Shown here piece by piece: positions 2,461-26,312 of a stretch of DNA of 64,000 nucleotides (position 1 is its first letter; every line of letters starts with the position of its first letter). The notes under the pieces were generated by a model. The model saw nothing but the letters and a program-made list of their open reading frames with translations, made no database searches and was not told the origin of the DNA. The position numbers and the translations under genes are program-made. The stretch is from an uncultured Gammaproteobacteria bacterium (GTDB taxonomy: Bacteria; Patescibacteriota; Patescibacteriia; 2-01-FULL-39-33): contig CAZEKG010000004.1 of assembly GCA_964512625.1 (NCBI GenBank), positions 9,223-73,222 on the forward strand. The letters are read 5' to 3'.

Positions 2461-3156
2461 CTATTTCTTAATGATAATAATTGCCTCATCCAGTAAATTT
2501 TGAAAATCCTTATTTTTTGACCAAATATTTTTTAATTTCTTTCTTAGCTCTTTATGTTCAGGATATCCGGGATCTTGGCATAATATAATTTTGTTAAACT
2601 CCGGCTCATTCAGTAAAAAAGTTAAAGATTCTTTCAAATCTTCAATCTGGTTATTTTCCAACCCTTTTCTTTTTACGTAGTCTTTGTAGTGATGCAGAAA
2701 CTGCAAGTGCATTATTTCATGGCAAATGGTCGTAATAGAAAAAGAAGTGCTGTGCCACATCGAAGCCATAAACCAGCTTTCTTTTTCGTTATAAGGACAA
2801 ACAAAGCCAGTAGTAAAGTAACAACTGAATTTTTCTTTAAAAATAGGCTTTTTCATGATTAGCTTAAGGGCTTTGAAATACTTTTTTTCAACTAGCCTCC
2901 ATGATTTTTCGAGCGCCTGCATTTCAAAACGCATCACCTTATTTTTGTAATCTTTTTTTGGATTATTTTTAATATAGTCCTCAACTATTTTTTGGGCGCG
3001 AAAAAAACTGGCTTTTTCGATTTTTTCTAAAAGCTCATCCGGAATCTGGGCAATTTGTTCACGCCAATTCAAGCCCCACATATTTTTGTCTTTGGCAATC
3101 AAAACCCAGCTCCAGGCGTCTTTATTGAGATTGTAGTCAAATTTAACTTTTGTCAT
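2461..3156 (-). CDS. hypothetical HExxH protein
   Basis: HEIMHLQFLHH motif in the C-terminal half. A Cys-containing segment precedes it. Family not recognised. Confidence 0.4.
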   Translation of the reverse strand: MTKVKFDYNLNKDAWSWVLIAKDKNMWGLNWREQIAQIPDELLEKIEKASFFRAQKIVEDYIKNNPKKDYKNKVMRFEMQALEKSWRLVEKKYFKALKLIMKKPIFKEKFSCYFTTGFVCPYNEKESWFMASMWHSTSFSITTICHEIMHLQFLHHYKDYVKRKGLENNQIEDLKESLTFLLNEPEFNKIILCQDPGYPEHKELRKKLKNIWSKNKDFQNLLDEAIIIIKK

Positions 3157-3160
3157 GGAT

Positions 3161-3658
3161 TTACTTATTTAATAATCGCCGTATTCTTGCTATTGCCTCT
3201 TTAATAGATGATTCTGTCGATACCAACTTGCCGCCAATCTCTAAGATAAAACTTTTTGCCATGGCGTCACAGTTCAAAAGAATTACTGGTTTTTTAGCTT
3301 TAATTGCCAATGCAACCTCAGAAAGAGTTCCGCTTGAAATCTTACCGCACGCGACAACAACATCACTAGATAATACGTTAATGTTGTTTCTGGCGCTTCC
3401 CATATTTGTTATAATTGGCACATCAACCCAATCAGATGCGAGCCGTGCATTTCTATGAGGAATAATACCAATAGTTAATCCTCCTACAGATTTTGCTCCT
3501 TTATTCACCGCATCCATAATACCTTTATTTCTTCCGCCACTTAAAACTACCCACCCAGATTCAGCAATTGATTTGCCCAATTCAAAAGCAAGGTCACTGT
3601 CTATGTCACGTGCCCCCTCACCCGATCCCATTACTCCAATAATAATCTGCCTGCTCAT
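3161..3658 (-). CDS. TIGR00725 / LOG-like (SLOG) Rossmann-fold nucleotide-binding protein
   Basis: N-terminal IGVMGSG glycine-rich loop, PVILLN and a GGxxT-like core, typical of the YgdH/LOG lysine-decarboxylase-like family. It is tightly coupled to the upstream HD gene. Confidence 0.65.
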   Translation of the reverse strand: MSRQIIIGVMGSGEGARDIDSDLAFELGKSIAESGWVVLSGGRNKGIMDAVNKGAKSVGGLTIGIIPHRNARLASDWVDVPIITNMGSARNNINVLSSDVVVACGKISSGTLSEVALAIKAKKPVILLNCDAMAKSFILEIGGKLVSTESSIKEAIARIRRLLNK

Positions 3659-3661: not shown

Positions 3662-4222
3662 TTAAAAATTTAATAATTTATTACTCTGTCTTGGCTCATC
3701 AAACCAGATACGGGCACTGATGGTGTCGCAACAGTGAACAAATGCGGCAAGAGGATTCATTATTCGTTTGGTATCGTGATAATCATTCTTTTCTCCTTCT
3801 ACATACTTAAGAGCATTTGATTGATCTCTTGTAAGTGAAATTTTTAATCGTTTCGCAATAATTATTGCTGACTGATATTTTGGATTACCTGCAAGAGCCG
3901 CGGGTATTGGCCGACCTCGCCCGTCTATGGTCATATTATATATTTTTTCCAAATCATGAAAGAAGAGAACATAAAGCGCATCTGAAAGCGTAAAAAGAAG
4001 CTGTCGCTGATTATTGAGCGTTTCATAAAGTAAGCAAGCAATCGACATAGTTTCTACTAAATGGCCGACATATCCTCCCTTCCAATTCTGATGCTTATGA
4101 AGACCCCCTGGAGCGCTTTGAAATCGCTCGCCCTCATTTTTTATGATAGCCAAAACATGCCTGCGATCGCTTAGCTTGATTTTTTTGACTAAAGTATTTA
4201 GCTGTTCTAAGTGATTTACCAT
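3662..4222 (-). CDS. HD-domain phosphohydrolase
   Basis: H...HD signature (GHLVETMS ... LFFHDLEKI). The start was moved to the internal Met (MVNHLEQ) preceded by an extended -10 (TGcTAAAAT). The longer ORF to 4303 is also possible. Confidence 0.5.
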   Translation of the reverse strand: MVNHLEQLNTLVKKIKLSDRRHVLAIIKNEGERFQSAPGGLHKHQNWKGGYVGHLVETMSIACLLYETLNNQRQLLFTLSDALYVLFFHDLEKIYNMTIDGRGRPIPAALAGNPKYQSAIIIAKRLKISLTRDQSNALKYVEGEKNDYHDTKRIMNPLAAFVHCCDTISARIWFDEPRQSNKLLNF

Positions 4223-4861: not shown

Positions 4862-5788
4862 TTATGGTGCGATGTGATGATGCATGTCCGTAAGAGATAT
4901 GATTCCGTCTCCAAGATCACGACCTACGACTTCAACAAGTGTGCCAGCAGGAGTCACTGGATCTCTCAACCAGTGATGAGACCAAACTTGATAGATTTGA
5001 CCAGATGGCTTTTGTACGACATATTTTCTTGGAAAAAGCCACGCAGCAGCACTATCAATAACGTGAGCATTCATTCGAATCTCAGGTGCCAGATATGAAT
5101 CATCATCATAAAGCCTAGCCGGAATTTTATCTCGTTCATCTTCGCCATACGTGAAAATGAACGAGATTTTTTGTCCCTGGTAGTACACTTTCGTCAAATC
5201 GCCTGCAAATACTGAATGAAGATACCCCTGATCGAGGCCATACATTTTCGCATAACGCTCTGCGTAAGACGAGACTACCTTCTTCGTCATAAGCTCCAGC
5301 TCCCTATTGAGCAAGGCATCTTCAATAGCCCGCCTGCACGAATGTGCGGATGAACTATTAAAAATAAGCAAGTCAATATCGAAGTCTAGTGCCTCACAAC
5401 CAAGACTAACCGACCCGCCAAGTCCACACTGATGACTCGCAATTCCGGCCGCCTGCAAAATACCCTTAACAATGCCGACGCGCGAATCAGAGCTTGTAAG
5501 CCAATTCTCAAATACCTGATGTGAGTCTATGCGACCAACAATGTGTTCGGCCGGAATCATTACCGACCATGGATCAATCTGAGCACATCTGATATATGGT
5601 TGCTTAGGAAGTAGGTCTGATCTTTGGTGGCGTAAAAACTTGTCATAACGCCTGCCAGAATACACCCGCTCACCGGCTTCGCTGGGAAAATACATCGGTC
5701 TTCCAAATAGATTACCCCTCTTCGAATACAGAGATCCGATCGAGTAAATCCATCCGGAAACCGTAACAACGGGACACAAAAGATTCAT
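4862..5788 (-). CDS. Pol-beta superfamily nucleotidyltransferase (GS...DxDxD)
   Basis: GLGGSVSLGCEALDFDIDLLIF matches the hG[GS]x9-13Dh[DE]h minimal-NTase motif, and acidic clusters lie downstream (YGEDERD, YDDD). The gene is G+C-rich relative to its flanks. Its start abuts the stop of the upstream gene. Confidence 0.5.
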   Translation of the reverse strand: MNLLCPVVTVSGWIYSIGSLYSKRGNLFGRPMYFPSEAGERVYSGRRYDKFLRHQRSDLLPKQPYIRCAQIDPWSVMIPAEHIVGRIDSHQVFENWLTSSDSRVGIVKGILQAAGIASHQCGLGGSVSLGCEALDFDIDLLIFNSSSAHSCRRAIEDALLNRELELMTKKVVSSYAERYAKMYGLDQGYLHSVFAGDLTKVYYQGQKISFIFTYGEDERDKIPARLYDDDSYLAPEIRMNAHVIDSAAAWLFPRKYVVQKPSGQIYQVWSHHWLRDPVTPAGTLVEVVGRDLGDGIISLTDMHHHIAP

Positions 5789-12146: not shown

Positions 12147-12155
12147 AAAAAATAA

Positions 12156-12190
12156 AGGCCCGCAGTCAATAACGACTGCGGGCCTTTATG
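12156..12190 (+). terminator. intrinsic terminator hairpin
   Basis: aaaGGCCCGCAGTCaataacGACTGCGGGCCttt followed by T-rich sequence. Confidence 0.6.
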
Positions 12191-12235
12191 TATTTAGTAA
12201 TTTTATAATCATTGAACTTGGGGTTTTGTGATTAT

Positions 12236-12270
12236 TGACATCATTATTTAAAATGTGTTATTATCAAATG
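12236..12270 (+). promoter_or_regulatory. sigma70-like promoter (TTGACA-17 nt-TGtTATTAT)
   Basis: Consensus -35 and an extended -10 lie ~65 nt upstream of the 12334 operon. Confidence 0.45.
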
Positions 12271-12333
12271 TTGCAATGCTACTAAGAAAATATTAATTGC
12301 AATAGAGTTCTTTGACATATAGGAGAAAGAGAG

Positions 12334-12981
12334 ATGGAAATCGATGGCTACATCAAGGGTTTTATGGGTCCAGTTCAACTGGAATGCCCGTTTGGTATCG
12401 CCTTATGGGCAAACAAAGCTCCTGGAAAGGGGTTTATTATGCATTCGGCATTGTCAGAAATATGCACTCATAAAAAACCATCCATTGTTGTTGATGACTA
12501 TCTTCCGATGGCAATATTTCACCGTTCTGTTGAAAAGCAGACAGAGATAAATGGTTTGTATTTTGAGGCATTATCCGAAAAGTGCTCGGAAATCAGCTTG
12601 ATGAGTGGTATTGTAAATCAGGCTGAGTATTTTAACAGAGTCATTGCAATGTTGGACAAGATAACGTTTTTGGGATTCGTAAGATGTTTGCCACAAAAAA
12701 AACTCGTCAGTGGCCTGGGGAGTATTGTTATGAGCGAAGTTTTGCATGCAGCTGCGGAATTATTTGTTTTCGAGCACATGAAATCAATGGGCTTGAAGAC
12801 AATAATCATCCCCCAATTCGCTCAGGCCATAATGTCCTTGCACCGCAATATCTCGGCTAATCCGCTAAGCGCTATTGTAACGTCCAATTTTGCAACCGAA
12901 ACAGACTTTGAGCGGCAAAGCCAGGAGTTATGGAGCTTGGCTGATCAGTTACTCGTCGCAATAAAAAGTCAAACCCAATAG
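12334..12981 (+). CDS. hypothetical protein (first gene of the tyrS operon)
   Basis: The RBS is tAGGAGaaagagagATG. No recognisable domain. G+C-richer than its surroundings. Confidence 0.5.
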   Translation: MEIDGYIKGFMGPVQLECPFGIALWANKAPGKGFIMHSALSEICTHKKPSIVVDDYLPMAIFHRSVEKQTEINGLYFEALSEKCSEISLMSGIVNQAEYFNRVIAMLDKITFLGFVRCLPQKKLVSGLGSIVMSEVLHAAAELFVFEHMKSMGLKTIIIPQFAQAIMSLHRNISANPLSAIVTSNFATETDFERQSQELWSLADQLLVAIKSQTQ

Positions 12982-13010
12982 AAGAGGAGAACGGAAAGGA
13001 GTAAGTAGTA

Positions 13011-13967
13011 ATGTATTTATTGTTGTCGTTTCTATCCACTAACTACAGTCAGTTAAACGATCACTGGCAAAAACATTCGGTTCTGAAGAAAGAAGGTAAG
13101 CGCGGTAGCGATAAGCCTTTTATCAAAGAGCTGGGTGGTTGTCTAGAAGTCATTGATTGGTCAACTAAACAAACTGTTTGGTCAATGCCTTTCAATAGTC
13201 CGGCCGGCACCTACCGGTTTTCGTCTGACTTACTAATGGTCAACTCTCTGCGGCAGGGAGCTATCAGTTTTGTTTCTCTGTCCAATAAGGCCGTAGTCGC
13301 AACTATCGGCAACGTTGCCTTCAATAAACCTCATTCGCTCATCAAAACAACCAGTGGTTTTATGGTTGCAAGCACGGGAGTTGACGCAATAGTGGAGGTG
13401 GATGGCAATGGCTCAATGCTCTATTCGTTCTTCTTCACAGAACACGGATACGAACTTGACCAACTCGGCACCAAACGATCGATTGATTTCAGTGCCAATC
13501 ATCAAGGCGTTGAATATCCTTCCTTGCACCAAACGACCCATGTAAACTATGCAAGGTATGTCGACGCTACCGAGACAAGAATCGTTGCCACATTGTTTCA
13601 TCCCGGTGAGCTGGTAATCATTGACAAAGAGTCCGGCGAAATAAAAATCATCTTGGATGGATTGAAAAATCCGCACAATCTGAAACCGGCTCTAGACAGA
13701 CAAGTCCTCTGTAATACATCGGCCAACGCCGTAATAGTAATGAACGGCGACTTCGAGATCATTGATCAGTTCGGCGACGGCCTGGGTATGTCTTGGGTAC
13801 AAGATGCCATATACTGTGAAGCAAGTGGTACCTTTATTGTGGCTGATGCGGATAATCATCGTTTGCTTGAACTCGACTGGAACGGAAGACCTGTCGACGA
13901 TTACTCGTTTTCACAGGACAACCGTATTTACGAAGTTTGTGAATTCAATGGAAATGTCAAGCCATAA
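13011..13967 (+). CDS. beta-propeller (NHL/SMP-30-like repeat) protein
   Basis: AAAGGAG RBS. Repeated FIVADADNHRLLELD-type NHL-like motifs. Confidence 0.45.
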   Translation: MYLLLSFLSTNYSQLNDHWQKHSVLKKEGKRGSDKPFIKELGGCLEVIDWSTKQTVWSMPFNSPAGTYRFSSDLLMVNSLRQGAISFVSLSNKAVVATIGNVAFNKPHSLIKTTSGFMVASTGVDAIVEVDGNGSMLYSFFFTEHGYELDQLGTKRSIDFSANHQGVEYPSLHQTTHVNYARYVDATETRIVATLFHPGELVIIDKESGEIKIILDGLKNPHNLKPALDRQVLCNTSANAVIVMNGDFEIIDQFGDGLGMSWVQDAIYCEASGTFIVADADNHRLLELDWNGRPVDDYSFSQDNRIYEVCEFNGNVKP

Positions 13968-13981
13968 GGAGGGGGCTGGCT

Positions 13982-14770
13982 ATGAAAACCAGAATTTTGA
14001 CGTTTACTGATTGCTCTGATGTCGCCAGTAATGAACTGCGAGCGACACTGACCCGCATGATTGATGATCTCGACATGGATAGCAACATCATTGTTGAGCC
14101 TTTTGTCAACTGCAAGGAGTTCTCCGTCGTCAACTGCGCCTTCATGGTGCGTTTATTGGCGGAAAGCTATGACCCAAAAAAAACAATCTTCCTGATTATA
14201 GCCAATGCCTTGCCCACCGCACGATCCAATCGTGCGAGATTGGTTGGACGAACGAAAAACGGAATCCGTTTTGTGGCGGAGAACACAGGGACACTTTCTT
14301 GGCTATTGGATGACTTCGGCCTCAAAGAGTTATATGAATATTCATCCAAAGGCCTTGACGGTCAGACTTTTGTATCCTTCGGAGGAAAGTACTTTCACGC
14401 TCCTGAAGCGGTCAAAATTGCCAGCATGGCCGAGTTTAACGGTTATGATGTCAAGTTTGACCCTGCCAGATTGACGAGAGTAGCTATTCCCGAGGGGAGC
14501 GTCGTTCACATCGATAATTTCGGCGTGGCCAAAATCAAAATGGTCCTACCGGCTGATTTGAAAGACGGTGAACAGCTGCGGTTGGCAATAAACGGACAAG
14601 AATGGAACACGGTACTATACTCCCATGCCATGAAAAATCTACCTGATGGCACGTGGACTATTTACAAAGGCAGCTCAATGGGATTGGCAGAGATTGGTTG
14701 TGTACGCAGAGTCGTTACCGACTCCGGCTACTTTGGAATTGGTGATGTTATAAGTATGAAAAGGAGCTGA
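13982..14770 (+). CDS. SAM hydroxide adenosyltransferase family protein (DUF62; SalL/FlA chlorinase/fluorinase family)
   Basis: N-terminal ILTFTDCSD (LTDFG-like). Central GSVVHIDNFGVAKI (G.VV.ID.FGN). C-terminal GSSMGLAEIG...GDVISM. The RBS is GGAGGGGG. Confidence 0.6.
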   Translation: MKTRILTFTDCSDVASNELRATLTRMIDDLDMDSNIIVEPFVNCKEFSVVNCAFMVRLLAESYDPKKTIFLIIANALPTARSNRARLVGRTKNGIRFVAENTGTLSWLLDDFGLKELYEYSSKGLDGQTFVSFGGKYFHAPEAVKIASMAEFNGYDVKFDPARLTRVAIPEGSVVHIDNFGVAKIKMVLPADLKDGEQLRLAINGQEWNTVLYSHAMKNLPDGTWTIYKGSSMGLAEIGCVRRVVTDSGYFGIGDVISMKRS

Positions 14771-14772
14771 CA

Positions 14773-15963
14773 ATGAACAGTAACGGCAAGAAAGCACCTG
14801 TCCAGGCCATCCTTGGTCGCGGACATATCCAGGAAGTTATATCCGATCAAGACATATCCGAATTGCTGAGCGGACCACCCCTCAGAGTAAAGTGGGGAAC
14901 TGATCCGACCAGCAAAAACATCCACCTTGGGAGATCGATACCCATCATGCTTCTGCGCGATTTGCAGCAGCTCGGGCATCAGATTGTTGTGATTATTGGC
15001 AATTTCACAGCCGAGATCGGCGACACAAGCGACAAAGATTGTGAACGGCCAGCCATTTCAACCGAGGCGGTGATACAGAACATGCAGACCTACATCCAGC
15101 AAATCGGCCAGATCCTTGATTTGGATAAGACCGAATTCCATTTCAACAAAGACTGGTGGGGCCAGATGGACTTCAGCCGCTTTGTTCGCATTACGGACTT
15201 GTTTTCCTTGGCAGAATTTTCGGCGAGAAACAATATCGCCAAACGTCTGCGGGAAGGAAAACGGGTATCCATCCGGGAGATGATCTATCCCATCATGCAG
15301 GGCTACGACTCCCTTCACTTAGATGCAGACATTGAGATAGGCGGCACCGACCAAAAGTTCAACATGCTGGCCGGACGAACAATCCAACGCGCTCACGGAA
15401 AGAAAGCCCAATCCCTGATCATGACGACACTGATTGAAGGACTAGACGGGCGCAAGATGAGTTCCTCCTGGGGCAACACGATTAACCTGACGGACAGTCC
15501 CGATGACATGCTCGGCAAACTTATGAGCATGAAGGACGAGATGATCATTCCTTACTATATCCATTTGACCCGCGTACCGCGCGAAGTCATTGATGAGTTC
15601 ACGAGGAAGATGTCCGCCAACGAAGTCAACCCTCGCGATGTCAAGCTGGAACTGGCCGTTGCAATCGTCTCCGATCTCTACAGTTCTGATCTGGCGGAGA
15701 AAGCTGCTGCCGAATTCAAGAAAGTTTTCCAGCAACGAGAGTTGCCGGAAGACATGCCCTCTTTCCAAGTCAAGAACACCAACATTGTTGATGTCTTGCT
15801 GGAAATCGGGTTCGCCGGTTCGCGCAGCGCAGCAAGACGGTTGATAGAGCAAGGTGGCGTGCGCATAGACGACGCCAAAGTCTCCGAATTATCGTCTGAA
15901 ATTCCCAACCAATGCGTAATTCGAAAGGGAAAGCTGCACTTTGCGAAAGTCGAAAAGGTGTAG
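14773..15963 (+). CDS. tyrS: tyrosine--tRNA ligase
   Basis: DPTSKNIHLG (HIGH-type), LQQLGHQIVVIIGNFTAEIGDTS, GGTDQ, KMSSS (KMSKS-type) and a C-terminal S4 domain (RRLIEQGGVRIDDAKV). Confidence 0.8.
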   Translation: MNSNGKKAPVQAILGRGHIQEVISDQDISELLSGPPLRVKWGTDPTSKNIHLGRSIPIMLLRDLQQLGHQIVVIIGNFTAEIGDTSDKDCERPAISTEAVIQNMQTYIQQIGQILDLDKTEFHFNKDWWGQMDFSRFVRITDLFSLAEFSARNNIAKRLREGKRVSIREMIYPIMQGYDSLHLDADIEIGGTDQKFNMLAGRTIQRAHGKKAQSLIMTTLIEGLDGRKMSSSWGNTINLTDSPDDMLGKLMSMKDEMIIPYYIHLTRVPREVIDEFTRKMSANEVNPRDVKLELAVAIVSDLYSSDLAEKAAAEFKKVFQQRELPEDMPSFQVKNTNIVDVLLEIGFAGSRSAARRLIEQGGVRIDDAKVSELSSEIPNQCVIRKGKLHFAKVEKV

Positions 15964-15994
15964 CTGACGACCAGTTCGTCACCGAAGAGCATAC

Positions 15995-16032
15995 CTAAAG
16001 GCACAGTCATCTACAGACTGCGCCTTTTTTAT
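15995..16032 (+). terminator. intrinsic terminator
   Basis: GCaCAGTCatctacaGACTGcGC followed by cttttttatttg. Confidence 0.45.
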
Positions 16033-16038
16033 TTGCTT

Positions 16039-16788
16039 CTATTTTACTAGAAAAGGTTTAATAAGTTTTTTTGCTTGAGAAAAATCTATTGCTGAAGAAT
16101 GTCCGCCATTAATGATTTTTAATTGACTGTGCGGATAATCATGAGATAATGATTCAGCCATTTCTTTTGGAGTAATTTCATCATCTCTCCCCACTAATAT
16201 CAACACTTCTGACTCGTTTGATCTTATGGCTTTGACTGATAAGGAATTCCTTTTCCTGCCATTTATCTCATTAAAGAATGATTCTTTATTCTTAAATCTG
16301 TATGAAAGCGGGTAATTACGCTCAATCATATTATATGTTGTCTTAGCGTTATTTAAATTGGCTTCTTCTTGATGCAAATAAGGCTTACTAAGAGGCGACA
16401 AGAAAATGATTTTTTTAATCTTATTAAAATCATATTCTCTTAAGGCCAGGTCTATAATATACGAACCGAAGCTATGCGAGAATAATACTATCTGACTGGG
16501 CTTAATCATTTGCTTAGGCTTTCTTGGGCCAAAGAAATACTCTCCTCGATTAATAAAATCATACCAATCTTTTACATCTTTTATGCAATTGATAATTGAA
16601 AAATCACCATAACTATCGAAAGTACCTGAATATAAAGGACAAAGTACATTATAATCTTGGCTCATCAAAAAATCTATAAAACTGTTAGTTGCTGGGTATT
16701 TAGGAAAACCTGTTAGAAAAAGAACGAAATTATCCGATCTAGACGGAAATAATAATGCCCTCTTTCTTCCATTGATTTGAGTAATCAT
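16039..16788 (-). CDS. alpha/beta hydrolase (serine esterase-like)
   Basis: GxSxG nucleophile elbow (HSFGS) and a C-terminal His. Confidence 0.55.
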   Translation of the reverse strand: MITQINGRKRALLFPSRSDNFVLFLTGFPKYPATNSFIDFLMSQDYNVLCPLYSGTFDSYGDFSIINCIKDVKDWYDFINRGEYFFGPRKPKQMIKPSQIVLFSHSFGSYIIDLALREYDFNKIKKIIFLSPLSKPYLHQEEANLNNAKTTYNMIERNYPLSYRFKNKESFFNEINGRKRNSLSVKAIRSNESEVLILVGRDDEITPKEMAESLSHDYPHSQLKIINGGHSSAIDFSQAKKLIKPFLVK

Positions 16789-17051
16789 ATTTAATAAAAT
16801 AATTATATACTTGATAATAAATTTAGCTATAAGACTTCAGATCGATTAAATAACTCTAGAATTCGCCTCTCTTATAATTAAACAAATATAACATTTTTAA
16901 ATAAATAAAACAATCCTTCGAACCTAAATTCTAGACCGAAGCACAACATAATCACAATAACCTTTTATACTCACAAATTTTTAAAATCTACTATTAAAAT
17001 TTACTATAGTAACATATATCGAAATAAAAAGCCGGGATTTCCGGCTATAAA

Positions 17052-17207
17052 CTACTGACCGTAGAATACCTGATATATGGACCAGGATCCGAATTGTTCT
17101 TTAGTCATAATAGATTGGCCGCTGACCATCAACGAAACTACCACAAAAACAAGAATAGTAGCGATAATCAGAGACACTCCAACTTTCAAGGAACGCTTAA
17201 GAGGCAT
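17052..17207 (-). CDS. 51-aa small membrane protein
   Basis: AAGGAG RBS 7 nt before the ATG (MPLKR). One TM segment. A hairpin terminator at 17028..17046 (AGCCGGgatttCCGGCT) lies downstream. Confidence 0.35.
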   Translation of the reverse strand: MPLKRSLKVGVSLIIATILVFVVVSLMVSGQSIMTKEQFGSWSIYQVFYGQ

Positions 17208-17389
17208 TTTTCTACTCCTTTCTTTTAAGCTACGTGCAATCATAAAATCCCAATGTATTTATATAATAAAACTAGTTACCATAACTGTCAACTAAATGAA
17301 AGAGCGAAAAACTATATAAACACAACATTATATACAAAAACTCTCTAATCTGCTTTAATTAACTTAGCAACCTAATAACCATTAAATAA

Positions 17390-18025
17390 ATGTCTCGTCA
17401 GCCCTCCCTAACTCCAGCCAAAATCTCCGTCGCCATCGCCCTAATCACTGAAAAAGAAATAAGCAGACAAATCTCTAAAGCCAGTCAGGCTATAGCCAAT
17501 CTTTTTGAGAATAATAATATCATAGACAATAGGGCTTTCCCCGCCCACATCTCGCTTTATCTGGGCGGTTTTGCTAAAGAAGATATCCCGGCCGTCAAAA
17601 AAACTCTCGAGCCTTTTAAAGAAACCATTCCTAAAATAACTCTGACCGTAAAAAAGATCCGCTTAAAGTCTCCTGGCTTCATTTATCTTGATCTTGAACT
17701 GCCAAAAGTACTTTTAGTCTCATATCAGAAGATGATTGAAAGTCTAGCCGTCATCCATCAACAAGACCCCGTCTATCGCCCAAGAATTATCAATAGATGG
17801 GCCAAACTGACTGGAAGCCAAAAAGCTTCTCTAAAGCATTATGGTGATTATAAAATTAAAGATCGACTTAATCCGCATATCTCTATCGCCTTGGTAGTCG
17901 AAAAACATGGGAAAGCTGCGCTTAAGCTAGCCAAAGAAATCATTACTCTGCCTCAAGAAATAAAAATCCGCCGAATACAAGCCGTCGATATCGGGCATAA
18001 AAATGAAAAATGGCAAATTCTGTAA
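17390..18025 (+). CDS. 2H phosphoesterase (LigT/ThpR-like RNA 2',3'-cyclic phosphodiesterase)
   Basis: Two H-x-S-x motifs (AHISLY and PHISIAL) ~115 residues apart. Confidence 0.55.
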   Translation: MSRQPSLTPAKISVAIALITEKEISRQISKASQAIANLFENNNIIDNRAFPAHISLYLGGFAKEDIPAVKKTLEPFKETIPKITLTVKKIRLKSPGFIYLDLELPKVLLVSYQKMIESLAVIHQQDPVYRPRIINRWAKLTGSQKASLKHYGDYKIKDRLNPHISIALVVEKHGKAALKLAKEIITLPQEIKIRRIQAVDIGHKNEKWQIL

Positions 18026-18080
18026 ATCATAACCTGATTGCCTTTTTCCTCTATATTTAGTAAGATTGATAGTAAGATAA

Positions 18081-19112
<1,032 letters not shown>

Positions 19113-19127
19113 AATGTTTCTCTAAAT

Positions 19128-19160
19128 AAAAAATCCCCGCTATTACAGCGGGGATTTTTT
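19128..19160. terminator. bidirectional intrinsic terminator
   Basis: aaaaATCCCCGCtattacaGCGGGGATttttt between convergent genes. Confidence 0.6.
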
Positions 19161-19166
19161 ATTGCC

Positions 19167-19973
19167 TTAACTGCCAAAAGTCATGAAGTTGGAGCTTTCA
19201 TACCTTTTAACAGCTCGGTAGAATATCTTAATCGATAAAATAAACCAAAAGACAGTCAAAGCTGCTATTAACAAAAATTTGAGCTCTGAAATATTCCTTA
19301 CAGCTTCTACGGGCAAGGCCCCGATCAAAAGAGATGGAATTAAAAAAATAAAAATAAATCTCATAACACCTTGAAAAGCTCCTCCATGAAAAATCGAAGG
19401 AGTCAAAAATAATTCAAACAGCCCGGAAGACACGGAATTGGCATCCATAAAAAAGAAACTGATCGAAAAAACCGCAATGACTATCGATAAGAATGTTATC
19501 GTAGTCATAATAATCAACGCCAGCATCATTAATAATTGAATCAAGTCCATTCTAATCAAAACAGCATAAACAGCTAACGAAGCAACGCCAAAAACGATAT
19601 CACCGACCGCCGAAGAACTGAATGCGGAGGTAGCAACTCTTAATAAAATATTTTTGGGCGACAACATAAAACGATCAAAGGATCCTGACGCGACATAATC
19701 CGGCAGTTTACGGACTCCTATCGCTACCGAAAAAACCAAACCGTAGGAAAGAGCGCCGAAGCCTAACAAACCGACAATATCAGCCGCCGTCCAGCCGCCG
19801 ATTACTCCCACTGATTTGACAAAAAATACCCAGAGCAGAACAAAAGCCGAGTTATTGATAGCCATGCCAATCACATTCATTAAAAAGCTAGTGCGAAGCT
19901 CAGCGCTACTTTGAATATTCTTCTTTATCGCATACCAAGCGAAATATAATTCCTTAAACATATTAACCGCCAT
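19167..19973 (-). CDS. ABC-2 family transporter permease
   Basis: Polytopic membrane protein downstream of an ABC ATPase. 11-nt overlap with the next permease. Confidence 0.6.
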   Translation of the reverse strand: MAVNMFKELYFAWYAIKKNIQSSAELRTSFLMNVIGMAINNSAFVLLWVFFVKSVGVIGGWTAADIVGLLGFGALSYGLVFSVAIGVRKLPDYVASGSFDRFMLSPKNILLRVATSAFSSSAVGDIVFGVASLAVYAVLIRMDLIQLLMMLALIIMTTITFLSIVIAVFSISFFFMDANSVSSGLFELFLTPSIFHGGAFQGVMRFIFIFLIPSLLIGALPVEAVRNISELKFLLIAALTVFWFILSIKIFYRAVKRYESSNFMTFGS

Positions 19974-20763
19974 TAATAGATACTTTTTCTTTAGCCCTGG
20001 AGAAAATAAAAATCATCCCTGAAAGCAGAACCGCAATCCAGAACCATTGGATACTTAACAGCCGATACCAATTCCCAGACCAGGATCCATAAACCGTATG
20101 CGTAATGAACTGAGAAGCGCCAAACGGACTGTAAAGCGACAGCTTATACATAATAGGAGGGAAAAGCGCAATAGGCAAATAGGATCCGCCCAAAATCATA
20201 ACCGACTTGTCGATGATCCAAAACAAGGGGTTTATATCCTCTATCCAAAAAGCCATTAAACCTACTATGGTATACAAGATTAAAGACAGGAGCATGGCGC
20301 CCAAAAAAGTCATGGCTAAGGTGGGAATGAAAATAACCAGCTTCATAGTAGCTGGAAACCCGACAGCTAATGATAAAATCAAGGTTCCTACCACTGTTGC
20401 TACTAAAAAAGAATAGAGTCCCGATCCTATTTGCCACCAAAAACGATAACTAAGATATGAGACCGGCTTACTGAATAATACTTCCACATTGCCCGATTGG
20501 ACATCCTGCATAATAAGCCTAGAAATATCCCTCAGCCTTAAAGTGGAAAAAGCGAAATAGAAAAAAATACTCCAGGCCACAAAAATATATTCCGTGCCAT
20601 TAACCGCTCCTCCGTTAAGATTAAAAACATACCAGTAAATAATCAATAACACTCCGCAACGCGCTACAATAATAACCGTATCCAAGATTAATCGTCCCGG
20701 ATATTGAATTCTATCTCTAATTAGAATGCTTAAAATTTTTCTAGCCAGCTTCATTCTTTTCAT
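19963..20763 (-). CDS. ABC-2 family transporter permease
   Basis: Polytopic membrane protein that overlaps the ATPase gene. Confidence 0.6.
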
Positions 20764-21730
20764 ATATATGTCGAATAACCGTCTCTAAGTCAGCATCGTA
20801 AACATCAATATCCTCGACCTCGAACAACTCCAGTAGTTGCTTCAAAGCTTCTTTAACGCTCACCTTATTAATATCGACCACGACTGTAATCTTATTGTCG
20901 CACTTTTCCCGATAACTCAAACCAGCTAACAACTTCGGGAATTTCTCAAACCTAGACATTGGAACCAAATCGACATACTTTTCATAAATAAATGTCTTAG
21001 CCAGGTCCTCAGTTAGCAAATCTTTCACTAAAACGCCATGGTTGATGATAATAGTCCGATTGCAAAGAGACTCAATATCGCCGACATCATGGGAAGTTAA
21101 GAAAATAGTAGTTTTTTCTTCCTTATTTATCCTCAGCAGTAAATCCCTTAAAGATTTTTTAGCCACCACATCCAGGCCAATCGTCGGCTCGTCTAAAAGA
21201 ATTAGTTGAGGTTTATGAATTAGAGAGGCAGCCACTTCGGCGCGCATCCTTTGGCCTAAAGACAGCTTGCGCACCGGCTGATCAATGAATGAACCTAAAT
21301 CAAAAATTTCCGTCAACTCCTCTAAGCGCTGTTTTATCTGGGACTCGCTCAAATCATACATTACGCCAAAAAACTCCAACGAATCAGTCAATGGCAGATT
21401 AGGTAGAAGCTGAGAACGTTGGCCAAAGACCGTACCGATTTTATAAGCCAGTTTTTTGCGATCTTTGACTGGATCGAGACCTAAAACGTTAGCGCTGCCA
21501 GAAGTCGGGTGCAATATCCCCGTTAACATCTTTATAGTTGTAGACTTTCCAGCACCGTTAGGCCCGATAAAGGCTATGCGTTCTCCCTCGTCAACTGTAA
21601 AAGAGATATCATTAACGGCTGTTAACTCCTTGATTTCCGGAGCAAAAAGGTTCTTTAGCCAACCAGCCTGCTGTCTTTTAATGGGGAAAGTGAATTTTTT
21701 AGACAAGCCTTTGACCGTTATTGATTTCAT
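20741..21730 (-). CDS. ABC transporter ATP-binding protein
   Basis: Walker [10 protein letters not shown], signature LSLGQRMR, Walker B LILLDEPT. The start was set at MKSITVKGL. The longer ORF begins at a non-ATG codon. Confidence 0.85.
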
Positions 21731-21880
21731 AAGTGTTTTTAGGATATATTTATATATTTTACATCCGAAGGAAGGTTTTAGCAATTAGTATCCAGCTTAA
21801 ATTTCAAAGCCCGGCCTCTAATGACCGGGCTTGTCTCTGTTACGTAGCAAGTTACGTAACAATCATTTTTATTGCCAATT

Positions 21881-23599
21881 TTATCTTTTATCCTTAATCT
21901 CCTGCAAAAGTTTTTCTTTAAACTCCTCTACCTTTATGCTTCCCTGATCGCCATCGCCGCGCTTGCGGACTGCCACCGACTTATCAGTAACCTCTTTCTC
22001 TCCGACAACCAGGATATATGGCGTTTTTTGTTTCTCGGCATTCCTAACCCTTTTACCAAGTGATTCATTGCTGTCGTCAATCTCGACTCTGATACCAGCT
22101 GATTTTAAATCATTTAAAACTTCCCTTCCGTAATTACTGAACTTTTCTGAAACCGGGATAATAACCGCCTGAACCGGCGACAGCCAAGCCGGGAAAATAC
22201 CGGCGTAATGCTCAATCAAAATCCCCAGGAATCTTTCAATTGAACCGTAGACAACTCGATGAATCATGACCGGCCGTTTTTCCTGACCATCATTATCCAC
22301 GTATTTGAGATCGAATCTTTCCGGCAGATTCATATCTAGCTGAATCGTCCCGCATTGCCAGGTTCTGCCAATAGCGTCCTTGATATGGATATCAATCTTC
22401 GGACCGTAAAAAGCCCCATCCCCTTCATTAATCTTATACTCTAATCCGGTAGCGTCCAAAGCGTTTTTTAGGCCGGTTGTCGCCGCTTCCCAAGCCTCAT
22501 CGCTACCGATTGATTTCTCCGGCCGAGTTGAAAGTTCAAGATGATAGCTAAGGCCGAAAACGGAATAAACCTCTTCAACTAATTTTAGAACGCCTAAAAT
22601 TTCTTCCTTGATTTGATCCGGTCGCATAAAGATATGAGCATCATCCTGATGGAAAGCGCGAACCCGGAACAATCCCGCTAAGACGCCGGAGAGCTCATGA
22701 CGATGGACTAAGCCGACTTCCGCCCAACGTAGTGGTAAGTCGCGATAAGAATGCAAGCCTTCTTTATACATCATAAGTCCGCCAGGGCAATTCATCGGCT
22801 TAATGGCATACTCCATTTCATCAATCATCGTCTCATACATATTCTCGCGATAATTTTCCCAATGGCCCGAAACTTCCCAAAGCTTTTTCGAAAGCATAAC
22901 CGGCGTCTTTATCTCATCATAACCGGCCTTGCCATGGGCTTGGCGCCAATATTCCAACAACTCATTCCAAACAACCATGCCTTTAGGTTTAAAAAACGGG
23001 AAGCCGGGACCTTCCTCATGAAAAGAGAATAAATCCAACTCTTTGCCAAGTTTTTTATGATCTCGCTTTTCCGCTTCTTCTAAAATTTTTAAATATTTTT
23101 GCAATTCATCCTTAGTTTCGAAAGCGACGCCGTAAATCCGCTGCAGCATTTTATTCTTTTCACTGCCCTTCCAATAAGCGCCGGCGATTTTCATCAATTT
23201 AAAATGCCCAAGCTCTTTAGTACTTTCAACATGCGGCCCACGGCAAAGATCTTCGAATTCTCCGACTTGGTAAAAACTAACCGAAGTTTCACCGCTTTCA
23301 GCTAAGTCGTTAATCAATTCTTTTTTATACGGCTGATCAGCCATTTTTTTCAATGCCTCTTCAATAGAAGTTTCTGACCTGATAAATTCTAATTTCTTTT
23401 TTATCAACTCTTTCATTTTTTCTTCTATCGTCTTTAAATCATCAGGCGTAAAAGTCTTATCACCCAAGTCAAAATCGTAATAGAAACCGTTTTCAATTGT
23501 CGGGCCAATAGCGAATTTTACTTCGCCGAATAACTCCTTAACCGCATAAGCTAAAACATGCGAAGTTGAATGGCGAATTTTTTCCAATTTTTCATTCAT
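21881..23599 (-). CDS. thrS: threonine--tRNA ligase (apparently lacks the N-terminal TGS domain)
   Basis: Class II motifs, a HxxxH editing-domain region and an anticodon-binding C-terminus. The start was set at MNEKLEKIRHS because the upstream Met at 23659 lies inside the leader terminator. Confidence 0.85.
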   Translation of the reverse strand: MNEKLEKIRHSTSHVLAYAVKELFGEVKFAIGPTIENGFYYDFDLGDKTFTPDDLKTIEEKMKELIKKKLEFIRSETSIEEALKKMADQPYKKELINDLAESGETSVSFYQVGEFEDLCRGPHVESTKELGHFKLMKIAGAYWKGSEKNKMLQRIYGVAFETKDELQKYLKILEEAEKRDHKKLGKELDLFSFHEEGPGFPFFKPKGMVVWNELLEYWRQAHGKAGYDEIKTPVMLSKKLWEVSGHWENYRENMYETMIDEMEYAIKPMNCPGGLMMYKEGLHSYRDLPLRWAEVGLVHRHELSGVLAGLFRVRAFHQDDAHIFMRPDQIKEEILGVLKLVEEVYSVFGLSYHLELSTRPEKSIGSDEAWEAATTGLKNALDATGLEYKINEGDGAFYGPKIDIHIKDAIGRTWQCGTIQLDMNLPERFDLKYVDNDGQEKRPVMIHRVVYGSIERFLGILIEHYAGIFPAWLSPVQAVIIPVSEKFSNYGREVLNDLKSAGIRVEIDDSNESLGKRVRNAEKQKTPYILVVGEKEVTDKSVAVRKRGDGDQGSIKVEEFKEKLLQEIKDKR

Positions 23600-23639
23600 A
23601 TTATTGTATTTAATTTTTTTATTCGTATTTGCAAACGTT

Positions 23640-23835
23640 AAAAAACAAAAAACTCCCATCTCAAAAACATATCAAAGACATGATCTTGGGACGAGAGTTT
23701 TAATTCCCGCGGTTCCACCCACTTTCCTCAGCCACAGCCAAGGCTCTTTTTATATAAACTTAGCGGATAAATCCGATAGCGTCGAACCTTTTTCGACAAC
23801 CATAGAAGGTTGGTATCCTTCTCAATCGCTTAAGG
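23640..23835 (-). promoter_or_regulatory. T-box riboswitch leader of thrS (Thr specifier ACC)
   Basis: On the minus strand: promoter TTGACA-16 nt-TGTAAAAT (23838..23868). A GAAGGauACCAaCCUUC hairpin carries an ACC codon. A T-box sequence AAAGUGGGUGGAACCGCGGGA lies at 23704..23724. A U-run at 23641..23655 precedes the thrS start. Confidence 0.6.
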
Positions 23836-23938
23836 GTATTTTACAATAGAGTAGATGCAACTGTCAATTTAAAAAAATATCGCCTAAATTAGCCCCATTC
23901 TTGTTATTTTGCCCATTTTCTGATAAAATCTAACCAAT

Positions 23939-25645
23939 ATGACTTACGCCATTGATAAAATCAAAGAGGAGATAAAAAGCTCTATTATCGCAGCAACGGG
24001 CGAAAATATCGATCCTAGCAACTTACTAATAGAAACGCCGCCGAATCCGGAAATGGGCGATTTTGCCGTTTCTTGTTTTTACCTTTCAAAACTCCTAAGA
24101 CGCTCTCCCAATATCCTAGCCGAGGAGCTTAAAACTAAAATTAAACCGTCTTCAACCTTCAAATCAGTCCAAAATATCGGTCCTTATGTTAATTTTTTCC
24201 TTAATTCGAAGAATTTAGCCCAAAAAACCTTAAAAGAAATCGAATCCAAGGGCTCGAAGTTCGGCCAATTAAAAGCCGAAAAAGAAAAATTAATGATCGA
24301 ATACTCCCAGCCCAATACTCATAAAGAATTTCATGTTGGCCATCTTCGCAATGCTATTTTAGGCTCAATCCTAGTCAATACCTATCGTTTCGGCGGTAAG
24401 AAAGTCATCGCCGCCAATTATATCGGCGATATCGGCTCTCATGTTGCTAAGTGCCTTTGGGCGCTAGAAAAATTCCACGCTGGCGAAGAACCAAAAGAAC
24501 ATAAAGGCCAATTCCTTGGCGCTATTTATACTGAGGCTTGCCAAAAAATAGAAGAAAACGAGGAATTTAAGAAAGAAGCGGCGGAAATACAAGTAAAACT
24601 GGAAAATGGCGATAAAAAACTCCTAGCCTTATGGAAAAAAACCCGCGCTTGGAGTCTCGACAATTTTAATGATATTTATAAAACCCTTGATATTAAATTT
24701 GATAAGTTTTTTTACGAAAGCGAAGTCGAAAAACCCGGTAAAAAGCTGGTCGCCGATCTTTTAGAGAAAAAAATCGCTGAAAAATCAAAAGGAGCGGTTA
24801 TTATCGACTTAGATAAGTATAAATTGAAGCAATTCCTGCTTTTGAAATCAGACGGCTCTTCCCTCTATTCGACTAAAGAACTAGCCTTAGCTAAGCTTAA
24901 ATTCGAAAAATTCAAAATCGATGCTTCATATATTATTGTCGATAACCGGCAAAGCTTCTATTTCCAACAATTCTTTAAAACCTTGGAGATCATGGGCTTT
25001 AAAGAAAAAACCGCCCATATTTCTTACGAATTTGTAACCCTGAAAGACGGGGCTATGGCTTCACGCAAAGGCAATGTCATTATCTTTGAAGATTTTTTTG
25101 CTGAAATTATTAAAAAAACCAATGAAGAGACCGCTAAACGTCACAGCGATTGGTCGCCGGAAAAGATAGCTAAGACCGCGGAAAATATCGCTTTAAGCGC
25201 CATTAAATTCAACATGATTAAAGTCGGCAATAATAGCATCATCGTTTTCGATATGGAAGAAGCCCTGAGCTTCGATGGCTTTACCGGCCCCTATCTCCAA
25301 TATACTGTCAGCCGTATCAACAGCATTTTTAGGAAAGAAAAAGCCAAGAGCCTCAAGGAAGTTGACTTATCCCTCCTAAACAGCGAATTAGAAAAAGAAA
25401 TTTTGATTAAATTGGCGGAATTTCCCGAGAGCATTAAAAAAGTCATCGAAAGCAACGAGCCAAGCGTCTTAGCAAAATATCTTTTCGAGCTTGCAAAAAG
25501 CTTTTCTCGCTTTTATCAGGAAGTTCCGATAATCACCTCGGAAGAAAAAATAAAATTCGCTAGATTATCTCTAATCTCAGCCGTTAAACAAGTTTTAGTC
25601 AACGGCTTAACTCTTTTAGGAATAAAAGAATTGGAAGAAATGTAA
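23939..25645 (+). CDS. argS: arginine--tRNA ligase
   Basis: EFHVGHLRN (HIGH), a DALR anticodon-binding region and a C-terminal ...EEM. The promoter TTGTTA-17 nt-TAAAAT ends ~9 nt before the ATG, so the mRNA is probably leaderless or has a very short leader. Confidence 0.9.
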   Translation: MTYAIDKIKEEIKSSIIAATGENIDPSNLLIETPPNPEMGDFAVSCFYLSKLLRRSPNILAEELKTKIKPSSTFKSVQNIGPYVNFFLNSKNLAQKTLKEIESKGSKFGQLKAEKEKLMIEYSQPNTHKEFHVGHLRNAILGSILVNTYRFGGKKVIAANYIGDIGSHVAKCLWALEKFHAGEEPKEHKGQFLGAIYTEACQKIEENEEFKKEAAEIQVKLENGDKKLLALWKKTRAWSLDNFNDIYKTLDIKFDKFFYESEVEKPGKKLVADLLEKKIAEKSKGAVIIDLDKYKLKQFLLLKSDGSSLYSTKELALAKLKFEKFKIDASYIIVDNRQSFYFQQFFKTLEIMGFKEKTAHISYEFVTLKDGAMASRKGNVIIFEDFFAEIIKKTNEETAKRHSDWSPEKIAKTAENIALSAIKFNMIKVGNNSIIVFDMEEALSFDGFTGPYLQYTVSRINSIFRKEKAKSLKEVDLSLLNSELEKEILIKLAEFPESIKKVIESNEPSVLAKYLFELAKSFSRFYQEVPIITSEEKIKFARLSLISAVKQVLVNGLTLLGIKELEEM

Positions 25646-25652
25646 TTTAGAA

Positions 25653-26234: not shown

Positions 26235-26257
26235 TCCTAAGAGGTTTGCGATAAAAA

Positions 26258-26292
26258 AGTCAAACATAAAATCCCCCTCTGCAGATGGGGGA
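26258..26292. terminator. bidirectional terminator hairpin
   Basis: aaaATCCCCCtctgcagatGGGGGATttt. Confidence 0.5.
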
Positions 26293-26312
26293 TTTTATGT
26301 TTGAGAAAATTT

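Follow-up and report, generated by a model that had tools for sequence, protein, structure and literature searches.

A triad-less DUF62-type protein, a tyrosyl-tRNA synthetase and a predicted synthetase-like domain share a candidate mobile cassette in a Patescibacteriota genome

Introduction

Hydroxide, fluoride and chloride are the only acceptors to which the adenosyl group of S-adenosylmethionine (SAM) is known to be transferred (2023 review, PMC10491745). The characterised DUF62 enzymes are (R)-SAM hydrolases (bioRxiv 10.1101/2025.08.29.672840; PMC10491745), and the His-Arg-Asp triad, which activates water, is strictly conserved in the SAM hydrolases and absent from the halogenases (PMC10491745). 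We analysed a stretch of 64,000 nucleotides, hereafter the window (contig CAZEKG010000004.1 of assembly GCA_964512625.1, forward-strand positions 9,223 to 73,222), from an uncultured bacterium deposited as a gammaproteobacterium and placed by GTDB in the Patescibacteriota. In this window a gene for a protein of the DUF62/SalL/FlA superfamily (gene C) lies directly ahead of a gene for tyrosyl-tRNA synthetase (TyrRS; gene D, tyrS), within a cassette of five genes that we call A to E; all coordinates below are positions in the window unless a locus is named.

Aminoacyl-tRNA synthetase (aaRS) copies that give self-resistance are found in antibiotic clusters, as with indolmycin and the tryptophanyl enzyme (TrpRS), mupirocin and the isoleucyl enzyme (IleRS), albomycin and the seryl enzyme (SerRS), and others. 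Cyclodipeptide synthases (CDPSs) are small stand-alone proteins with the Rossmann fold of class Ic aaRSs, without the HIGH and KMSKS motifs and with an amino-acid pocket homologous to that of TyrRS and TrpRS (PMC3105412); their conserved catalytic residues are G35, S37, Y178, E182, P184 and Y202 (PMC3105412).

Judged from the sequences, the core that recurs widely around gene C and its relatives is a triad-less enzyme of the DUF62/SalL/FlA type, a full class Ic aaRS and a predicted synthetase-like domain of about 200 residues that belongs to the matching subfamily. All the parts of the cassette belong to known superfamilies. The triad-less clade of C, the family of gene A with its sister family f9, and their obligatory partnership with TyrRS or TrpRS appear to be undescribed, and a literature search, in which subscription journals were thinly covered, found no report pairing DUF62, a SAM hydrolase or a chlorinase with a tRNA synthetase. 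We tentatively propose, with somewhat less than even confidence, that the product or substrate of the cassette is an aromatic aminoacyl-adenosine or a metabolite resembling an adenylate (an adenosine-tyrosine conjugate).

Results

Gene C lacks the catalytic triad of the SAM hydrolases

Gene C (13982-14770, plus strand) encodes a protein of 262 residues. The Pfam model SAM_HAT_N matched it with 28.5 bits, barely over the cutoff of 26.3, and SAM_HAT_C, which was found in the relatives at loci L061 and L072, was not found in C of the window. A profile of the C subfamily matched, in the PDB, the DUF62 proteins 2zbu and 2f4n with E-values of 1.8e-14 to 6e-14, SalL with about 1e-6 and FlA with 0.63, and it spans residues 19-259 of MJ1651 and 2zbu (E-value about 1e-14). 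The NCBIfam equivalog for the (R)-SAM hydrolase (NF058624) gave 22.1 bits against a cutoff of 350.

The triad positions were read from an alignment of 68 members of the subfamily with MJ1651, 2zbu and SalL. The canonical Asp is replaced by Asn in 61 of the 68 and the canonical His by Gly in 63; the Arg column holds Pro, Arg or Thr and is not conserved, and an Arg is present two residues downstream in 62 members. The corresponding residues in C of the window are N75, G134 and a shifted R86. The subfamily keeps the TDCxD, HIDNFG and GSS motifs, which we take to contact the ribose and the methionine moiety as they do in characterised members, and residues newly conserved in at least 60 of the 68 proteins are C11, K136, H139, H176, N179, K184 and R242. 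A preliminary description of this DNA had placed C in the DUF62/SalL/FlA superfamily, which the SAM_HAT_N and profile matches bear out; it had also called C a SAM hydroxide adenosyltransferase that could serve salvage, a role against which the replaced triad and the equivalog score both speak.

Compared with the DUF62 SAM hydroxide adenosyltransferases (PH0463, MJ1651, SaDUF62 and StDUF62), C thus belongs to the same superfamily and keeps the ribose Asp and the HID-FG and GS motifs, but it is devoid of the His-Arg-Asp triad, has conserved residues of its own and has aaRS genes as genomic partners. SalL and FlA are likewise triad-less adenosyl transferases, and the FGGK of C aligns with WYGK of SalL. 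The counterpart of SalL G131 is retained in 65 of 68 members (as G135), the column of SalL Y70 holds Ile or Val and the equivalent of FlA S158 is Gly; in overall similarity, however, C is closer to the hydrolases than to SalL or FlA. Halometabolite genes, for example for a purine nucleoside phosphorylase, were not seen beside C in the cassette, the recurrent neighbours being genes for aaRSs, PPDK_N proteins and hydrolases. The pattern of kept and replaced residues makes C a likely SAM-binding relative of these enzymes that would use a nucleophile other than triad-activated water.

Gene A is a predicted synthetase-like domain paired with the matching synthetase

Gene A (12334-12981, plus strand; 215 residues) founds a new sequence family. 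No match in Pfam or NCBIfam, nor to PDB sequences or profiles, was obtained for it, the Pfam scan covering 43 members of the family at E-values up to 5. The AlphaFold2 model of A, built with 43 homologues, reached a mean predicted local distance difference test (pLDDT) of 93.6 and a predicted template modelling (TM) score of 0.89. In a Foldseek search with this model every one of the top 50 PDB matches was a TyrRS catalytic domain or an engineered variant of one (TM-scores 0.50-0.60, probability 1.0). The aligned family is without HIGH or KMSKS, and its invariant residues are G21, W25, D54, P58, R64, S91, F115, P120, K123 and E135. On the strength of the model, A is predicted to be a stripped-down, TyrRS-like class Ic Rossmann domain.

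Open reading frames (ORFs) around the 82 loci that hold a homologue of C were clustered without prior annotation. A second family, f9 (about 260 residues), emerged from this clustering and is homologous to A (hhalign probability 98%, E-value 1.9e-13, with reciprocal hidden Markov model matches). All 15 genes of the A family lie in a module with a TyrRS, 10 of them immediately adjacent to it (including L036, where the synthetase was masked in the ORF map) and 5 in the order A-B-C-TyrRS; the f9 genes, nine out of nine, stand immediately beside a TrpRS. The order of the genes varies. It is TyrRS-A-hydrolase-C in L019-21, C-A-TyrRS in L036, L038, L040, L044 and L049 (preceded by PPDK_N-hydrolase in L036, L040, L044 and L049), hydrolase-C-TyrRS-A in L046, and PPDK_N-hydrolase-C-f9-TrpRS in L035, L045 and others. 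The same set of genes in varied order is a classical signature of functional coupling, here read from gene positions. The preliminary description had listed A as an unknown protein; the lack of a family match stands, but A is no bystander, being a predicted TyrRS-like mini-domain that travels with TyrRS.

The likeness of A to the CDPSs (AlbC, Rv2275 and YvmC) lies in the predicted stand-alone class Ic-like fold without the signature motifs for adenosine triphosphate (ATP). It differs from them in being shorter (170-228 residues against 239-289), in having Ala, Val, Asn or Ser at the position of the catalytic Ser, after a conserved Gly, and in having no Y-x3-E-x-P motif; moreover, the top 50 structural neighbours of A are TyrRSs and none is a CDPS. 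In this comparison the CDPS positions were mapped on A by eye, and G21 and the acidic E135 are invariant. Membership of A in the CDPS family was considered and rejected, as the Ser is not conserved and none of the 43 members gave a match to the Pfam CDPS model. To our knowledge, CDPS genes are not characteristically paired with a cognate aaRS, and we know of few stand-alone derivatives of the class Ic catalytic domain besides the CDPSs.

Relatives of gene C are linked to class Ic synthetases in distant lineages

The C subfamily is rare, with 87 confirmed relatives over 185,579 species genomes. Of 82 loci, 37 have a class Ic aaRS no more than three genes away from C, and in 20 the two are immediate neighbours; a rough estimate of our own, for a genome of 1000 genes with two such genes, gives an expected linkage of 1-2%. 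The linked loci come from bacteria of the Candidate Phyla Radiation (CPR), DPANN archaea, Bacilli, Lachnospiraceae, Alphaproteobacteria and actinomycetes. The linkage of DUF62 to tyrS itself, which the preliminary description had proposed to look for in relatives, is present in L001, L002-L009 and L014.

In the DPANN locus L011 an archaeal TyrRS (388 bits) is followed by C, two radical-SAM enzymes and a methyltransferase, and in L013 and L023, also from DPANN, two archaeal-type TrpRS paralogues stand beside C. Downstream of C in Bacilli, Lachnospiraceae and Alphaproteobacteria comes a divergent TrpRS paralogue, in which HIGH and KMSKS are kept and GxDN takes the place of the GxDQ of the standard enzyme; other members of these clusters are a PPDK_N phosphotransferase, a protein resembling oxidoreductases, a B12-radical-SAM enzyme or an O-methyltransferase, and one or two additional copies of TrpRS. 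The architecture of PPDK_N with a phosphoenolpyruvate (PEP) utiliser domain, fused to a MerR-type helix-turn-helix, is found in 26 loci. A Peptidase_S51 protein lies near C in 12 loci, and HIT proteins recur as well.

Several loci have more than one synthetase of the same type. Besides the two paralogues of L023, L026 has a TyrRS below the cutoff beside C (173 bits against 220) and a canonical TyrRS (362 bits), L013 has a canonical TrpRS and a TrpRS paralogue below the cutoff, and L061 has three TrpRS-type genes. The module TyrRSs of L019, L021, L036, L038, L040, L044, L046 and L049 form another clade, with HLGH, KMSKS and the motif YGxLMGID, in which Met stands where Gln is expected. L036, from the Paceibacterota (CPR), is the only locus of this clade with enough flanking sequence, and it carries a canonical TyrRS too: a TyrS-type enzyme at 12936-14198 of that locus (minus strand), which lies 2.3 kb away from the module copy and matches PDB 2ts1, the TyrRS of Geobacillus (formerly Bacillus) stearothermophilus, with 520 bits. 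This TyrS-type copy may have been acquired from Firmicutes and may back up the module TyrRS with its altered tyrosine site (Gln to Met).

Members of the C subfamily were also observed in other surroundings. In Odyssella, Chlamydiae, Holosporales and other metagenome-assembled genomes (MAGs; L043, L042, L068, L070, L073 and L067), C is duplicated or fused, and the contexts hold PEP mutase (352 bits, over the cutoff), HIT, adenylate-kinase-like, Ldh_2, B12-radical-SAM and PPDK_N proteins; by their gene content these look like phosphonate-type clusters in obligate intracellular bacteria. In L037, L055, L034 and L062, C stands beside a MoaA/viperin-like radical-SAM enzyme, an amidotransferase of the asparagine-synthase type, a guanylate-kinase-like protein, an enolase paralogue and a weak sulfotransferase match, an arrangement that by analogy resembles modified-nucleotide pathways such as those of the prokaryotic viperins. 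In eleven CPR loci (L024, L025, L027, L028, L030-L032, L039, L051, L058 and L065), C is paired with a protein of about 375 residues, usually together with Peptidase_S51. The C-terminus of this partner gave a weak match to motif 3 of histidyl-tRNA synthetase (Pfam tRNA-synt_His, 21.7 bits, cutoff 25), which hints that the C clade may also partner class II aaRS-like proteins. The common theme of these wider contexts, as far as the annotated neighbours suggest, would be chemistry on adenosine or adenylate-type compounds.

The five-gene cassette is conserved and its flanks vary

In the window the unit is formed by A, B, C and TyrRS together with gene E (16039-16788, minus strand; 249 residues), which encodes an alpha/beta-hydrolase convergent with tyrS and matched by Pfam Abhydrolase_1 and related families. 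The same arrangement recurs in four further lineages (L001, L002-L005, L006-L009 and L014, which belongs to the Saccharibacteria MAG CAZVMH01), with protein identities to the window of 42-68% for A, 53-76% for B, 50-80% for C, 61-85% for TyrRS and 46-70% for the hydrolase. The preliminary description had counted four genes in the unit; the order A to D holds, and its extent has to be widened, because the convergent hydrolase (247-249 residues in relatives) is kept at the same position in L001, L002-4, L006, L009 and L014. The family of E adjoins C in 24 loci.

Gene B (13011-13967, plus strand; 318 residues) probably encodes a beta-propeller of the NHL type. Pfam NHL gave 16.4 bits, below the cutoff of 20, and a profile of six B homologues matched PDB NHL propellers (PknD, Thin and TRIM71) with E-values of 1e-5 to 1e-3 (best 1.4e-5). 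The protein has many invariant His residues, and the gene is restricted to cassettes of this type and to L047. In the cassettes of relatives B, C and D overlap by 4-17 nucleotides, which suggests translational coupling of the three genes.

The flanks of the cassettes in L014, L002 and L006 have no genes in common with the window or with each other, and those of L002 and L006 are unrelated despite TyrRSs that are 81% identical; for L001 only about 350 nucleotides per side were available. The G+C content of the modules departs from that of their hosts in both directions, with 0.44 against 0.37 and 0.40 in the flanks in the window, 0.48 against 0.38 and 0.42 in L014, 0.41 against 0.50 and 0.48 in L019, and 0.44 against 0.62 in L046. 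Because the composition departs from the hosts and the flanks vary, these sequences suggest that the cassette, tyrS included, moves laterally as one unit. Direct repeats flanking the cassette were sought and none was convincing; the search returned only an imperfect inverted repeat of 15 nucleotides that contains the 10-mer described below and is not conserved in the relatives. A tRNA-Ala(GGC) gene was observed 0.2-1.9 kb from the module edge in three loci (L035 at 3869-3940, L036 at 5609-5682 and L081 at 3094-3169), and may reflect an integration site or conserved synteny. No tRNA-Tyr or tRNA-Trp gene lies within the modules.

The cassette TyrRS descends from an ordinary lineage

Gene D (14773-15963, plus strand; 396 residues) encodes a bacterial TyrRS of the type of Thermus thermophilus. 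It scored 313.1 bits with TIGR00234 (cutoff 113.8) and 211.5 bits with tRNA-synt_1b, to which matches with SYY_C-terminal and S4 are added, and in the PDB it matched 6byq with 266 bits and 1h3e with 223 bits. It resembles the T. thermophilus type in being full-length, in having an S4-like C-terminal domain and in the Y..Q..D tyrosine motif, and its tyrosine-binding motif, YPIMQGYD, is intact; it differs in that HIGH reads HLGR and KMSKS reads KMSSS, and in its place inside a cassette.

D was compared with its 80 closest relatives from metagenomes (38-53% identical, on contigs of which some reach about 1 Mb), 79 of which could be extracted. HxGR is found in 58 of the 79, KMSSS or KMSTS in 58 of the 79, with KMSSS itself in 47, and Y..Q..D in all. 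The idea that HLGR and KMSSS are a specialisation or a resistance-type change in D was rejected, given that most of the stand-alone relatives share them. Human cytosolic TyrRS also has KMSSS, and for TyrRSs with this motif aminoacylation is reported to depend on K+. The motifs of D are therefore typical of its lineage and, with the TIGR00234 score, agree with the canonical TyrRS named in the preliminary description; its statement that the window holds a single tyrS is borne out as well, tblastn having found one TyrRS in the 64 kb.

The cassette TyrRSs form one clade nested within the stand-alone relatives, with root-to-tip distances of 0.47-0.49 against 0.45 (standard deviation 0.024). More than 50% identity to D was found for one 50%-identity cluster among 1.8 billion representatives, and this cluster probably stems from a cassette contig, since its contig matches that of the C homologue P0010 in length and in source. 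By its sequence, D is the descendant of an ordinary lineage of TyrRSs; it has the look of a fully active enzyme and may also serve translation. Whether it is the sole TyrRS of its host or a mobile second copy we judge to be close to evenly balanced: a second copy is favoured by the composition, by the non-syntenic flanks and by relatives with an extra canonical copy, and a sole copy by the normal evolutionary rate and the small genomes.

Five of the relatives of D (P0115, P0116, P0118, P0128 and P0133) are proteins of 630-715 residues with an apparent N-terminal fusion to B3/4, the editing fold of the beta-subunit of phenylalanyl-tRNA synthetase; the domain was confirmed with Pfam in P0115 and P0128 and recognised by eye in the other three. 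On a TyrRS it may be a module for cis-editing or for tRNA binding.

Transcription signals, composition and surroundings

A strong bidirectional terminator hairpin (12152-12189, plus strand; stem of 16-17 base pairs, nine of them GC) closes the upstream gene, which is AP-endonuclease-2-like, and forms the left boundary of the cassette. It is followed by a sigma-70-like promoter at 12235-12264 (plus strand), a promoter-like site about 70 nucleotides 5' of gene A that was called by consensus match, with TTGACA, a TG-extended TATTAT and agreement at 11 of 12 positions. The promoter is the one given in the preliminary description, except that our tool counts a spacer of 18 nucleotides against the 17 stated there. 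The four tightly packed, G+C-richer genes that the same description placed between this promoter and a terminator were likewise recovered as ORFs. The gaps A/B, B/C and C/D are of 29, 14 and 2 nucleotides, and the G+C content climbs from 0.38 to 0.51 over the A-D block, with flanks at 0.30-0.37. A weak terminator-like hairpin with a T-run (16004-16030, plus strand, with the hairpin itself at 16004-16020; a 5-base-pair stem followed by CGCCTTTTTT) lies between the convergent D and E. We infer co-transcription of A to D from this spacing and from the overlaps of stop and start codons in relatives. At third codon positions the G+C content (GC3) of tyrS is 0.63, the highest among 60 ORFs of the window (mean 0.39, standard deviation 0.079).

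An Rfam search upstream of the cassette returned no T-box, SAM riboswitch or other family, the matches being below threshold and due to the terminator hairpin. The 10-mer TTGTGATTAT has three copies in the 64 kb, all inside the cassette (12226-12235, plus; 14987-14996, plus; 16948-16957, minus), with 0.24 copies expected in the window and none of 100 shuffles reaching three. The copy at 12226-12235 overlaps the -35 region and the one at 16948-16957 sits upstream of gene E in matching orientation, so that TTGTGATTAT may be a putative shared operator of the two transcription units; the copy at 14987 encodes VVIIG within tyrS. The 10-mer is not conserved at these positions in the related cassettes. 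Comparison of A to E with the anti-phage models of PADLOC gave no meaningful match.

The neighbourhood of tyrS is unusually dense in aaRS genes, with five in the 16 kb of 14773-30749: TyrRS (14773-15963), TrpRS (18102-19112), threonyl-tRNA synthetase (ThrRS, 21881-23659, minus strand), arginyl-tRNA synthetase (ArgRS, 23939-25645) and IleRS (27768-30749). Between the cassette and trpS lies a gene (17390-18025) for a LigT-like 2H-phosphoesterase or 2'-5' RNA ligase, which Pfam scored at 23.3 bits, below the cutoff of 27. Directly downstream of trpS, an ABC-2-type exporter operon (19167-21784, minus strand) comprises a membrane component, one further ORF and an ATPase; in L014, about 6 kb ahead of the cassette, there is an ABC ATPase 42% identical to that of this exporter, possibly by coincidence. 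Farther away, five small ORFs of 124-154 residues (35346-37495, minus strand) form a tandem pilin gene family, the three that were scanned being T4SS_pilin, TrbC/VirB2-like. An ORF of 182 residues with a TTG start (40288-40836) has the second-highest GC3 of the window (0.60) and no Pfam match, and is another outlier in composition.

Discussion

In the pathway that we tentatively propose, C would cleave SAM at C5' and hand its 5'-deoxyadenosyl moiety to some nucleophile that is not activated water. Gene A, which could not activate an amino acid by itself, would supply a pocket for tyrosine or a tyrosyl group, or would use Tyr-tRNA, and TyrRS would give activated tyrosine (tyrosyl-adenylate, Tyr-AMP, or Tyr-tRNA), or be a protected target, or both. 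The propeller B and the hydrolase E might tailor, release, hydrolyse or detoxify the product, which would be expected to mimic tyrosyl-adenylate or the aminoacyl end of Tyr-tRNA. Where the preliminary description had offered either salvage or a small tailoring pathway, it is the tailoring option that fits the present evidence best, and salvage finds poor support.

The locus resembles the antibiotic clusters with a self-resistance aaRS in that a synthetase stands among biosynthetic-looking enzymes, with two or three copies of the same type in L036, L026, L013, L023 and L061. It differs from them in its hosts, for the most part CPR bacteria and DPANN archaea of ultra-small size, and in a window TyrRS that shows no resistance-type divergence. 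A bolder version of the proposal can be formulated, which we consider somewhat unlikely in its entirety. The triad-less DUF62 clade would then transfer the adenosyl group of SAM in a third way, neither to water nor to halide but to an organic nucleophile or a phosph(on)ate, and would build, with A for tyrosine or f9 for tryptophan, mimics of aminoacyl-adenylates or aminoacyl-adenosines without ATP. TyrRS or TrpRS would be the supplier or the immune target, and the product a small-molecule weapon or signal encoded on mobile cassettes of episymbiotic CPR and DPANN organisms, with larger versions in Firmicutes and actinomycetes.

Several observations weigh against a biosynthetic role of the cassette. 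D shows no sign of specialisation in its ATP and tyrosine motifs with respect to the stand-alone relatives, its branch is of normal length, and none of A, B, C and E was found within 8 kb of its 80 closest stand-alone relatives; tyrS may here be a housekeeping gene that became joined to A-B-C. Part of the aaRS-neighbourhood signal could be due to the clustering of translation genes. C could hydrolyse SAM through other residues, or be a binding protein only. A has no conserved catalytic Ser of the CDPS kind, so that a CDPS-style use of aminoacyl-tRNA is unsupported by its motifs, and the single-sequence AlphaFold2 model of B was unusable (pLDDT 40).

The same gene set could also be read as an island of resistance or immunity, without biosynthesis, against an antibiotic of the host or of a neighbour that mimics an aminoacyl-adenylate. 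TyrRS would then be an extra or insensitive target, with A as a decoy that binds the inhibitor and takes it out of circulation; its cleavage would fall to C, the propeller and the hydrolase, and the PPDK_N-type enzyme of related modules would inactivate it by phosphorylation, like rifampin phosphotransferase. The extra or divergent synthetases beside C in L036, L026, L013 and L061 are in line with such an island, as are a predicted synthetase-like binding domain without ATP motifs, the recurring hydrolases (alpha/beta-hydrolase, Peptidase_S51 and HIT), the MerR-type fusions of PPDK_N and the PEP utiliser, and the island-like composition and flanks. We nevertheless regard it as unlikely: the TyrRS of the window has the same ATP and tyrosine motifs as its stand-alone relatives, the cassette has no conserved efflux gene, and many relatives of C have typical biosynthetic enzymes as neighbours, among them B12-radical-SAM enzymes, methyltransferases, PEP mutase and AsnB. 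Another view takes up and extends the salvage option of the preliminary description: tyrS would be a housekeeping gene, co-transcribed for convenience with a DUF62 enzyme that hydrolyses SAM, or its inactive R-epimer, to adenosine and methionine for salvage or repair in an organism without purine synthesis. This view has in its favour the membership of C in a superfamily whose characterised DUF62 enzymes are (R)-SAM hydrolases, the retained SAM-binding motifs, the enrichment of the subfamily in lineages with reduced genomes (CPR, DPANN, Chlamydiae and Holosporales), a TyrRS that looks normal and a region with four more aaRS genes. The replacement of the triad Asp and His in nearly all the members, an Arg position that is not conserved and the equivalog score far below its cutoff make it quite unlikely, and no SAM riboswitch or T-box was found upstream. 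Salvage would also leave unexplained why A pairs strictly with TyrRS and f9 with TrpRS, why extra aaRS paralogues occur and why the contexts include nucleotide and phosphonate clusters.

A further alternative is a module for regulation or quality control, in which the mimic A would bind TyrRS, tyrosine or tRNA-Tyr and modulate or proofread charging, and C would sense or scavenge SAM or adenosine, so that charging would be tied to the methionine or SAM status. The subfamily of A or f9 always fits the partner synthetase, B, C and D are coupled by overlaps in relatives, and the B3/4 fusions suggest that this TyrRS lineage recruits accessory domains. The hydrolase, propeller and PPDK_N partners and the members of the C subfamily without a nearby aaRS would, however, remain unexplained, and we know of no class Ic aaRS in bacteria that is regulated by a mimic of a catalytic domain; we hold such a module to be decidedly improbable. 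Chance or hitch-hiking, with unrelated neighbours kept together by the shared ancestry of close genomes, could be argued from the full A-B-C-D/E order, which occurs in one clade only (the window, L001, L002-9 and L014), where TyrRS is monophyletic. But the gene set occurs in the other orders described above, with an archaeal-type TyrRS in DPANN and with TrpRS and f9 elsewhere, and the flanks are not syntenic, which leaves this explanation hardly credible.

The annotation of C-clade proteins as "SAM hydrolase" or "chlorinase/fluorinase" probably misnames their reaction. A widespread triad-less clade with conserved residues of its own is a candidate for a new acceptor in SAM adenosyl transfer, and A and f9 represent unannotated, minimal TyrRS- and TrpRS-like domains that are strictly paired with the cognate synthetase. 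With five genes in 4.5 kb, the cassette is short enough for direct synthesis and testing, and if its product targets an aaRS it would be of antibiotic interest. CPR bacteria and DPANN archaea are generally credited with next to no secondary metabolism. If our reading is true, the production of an adenylate mimic from a mobile cassette, or protection against one, would be relevant to the interaction between these episymbionts and their hosts.

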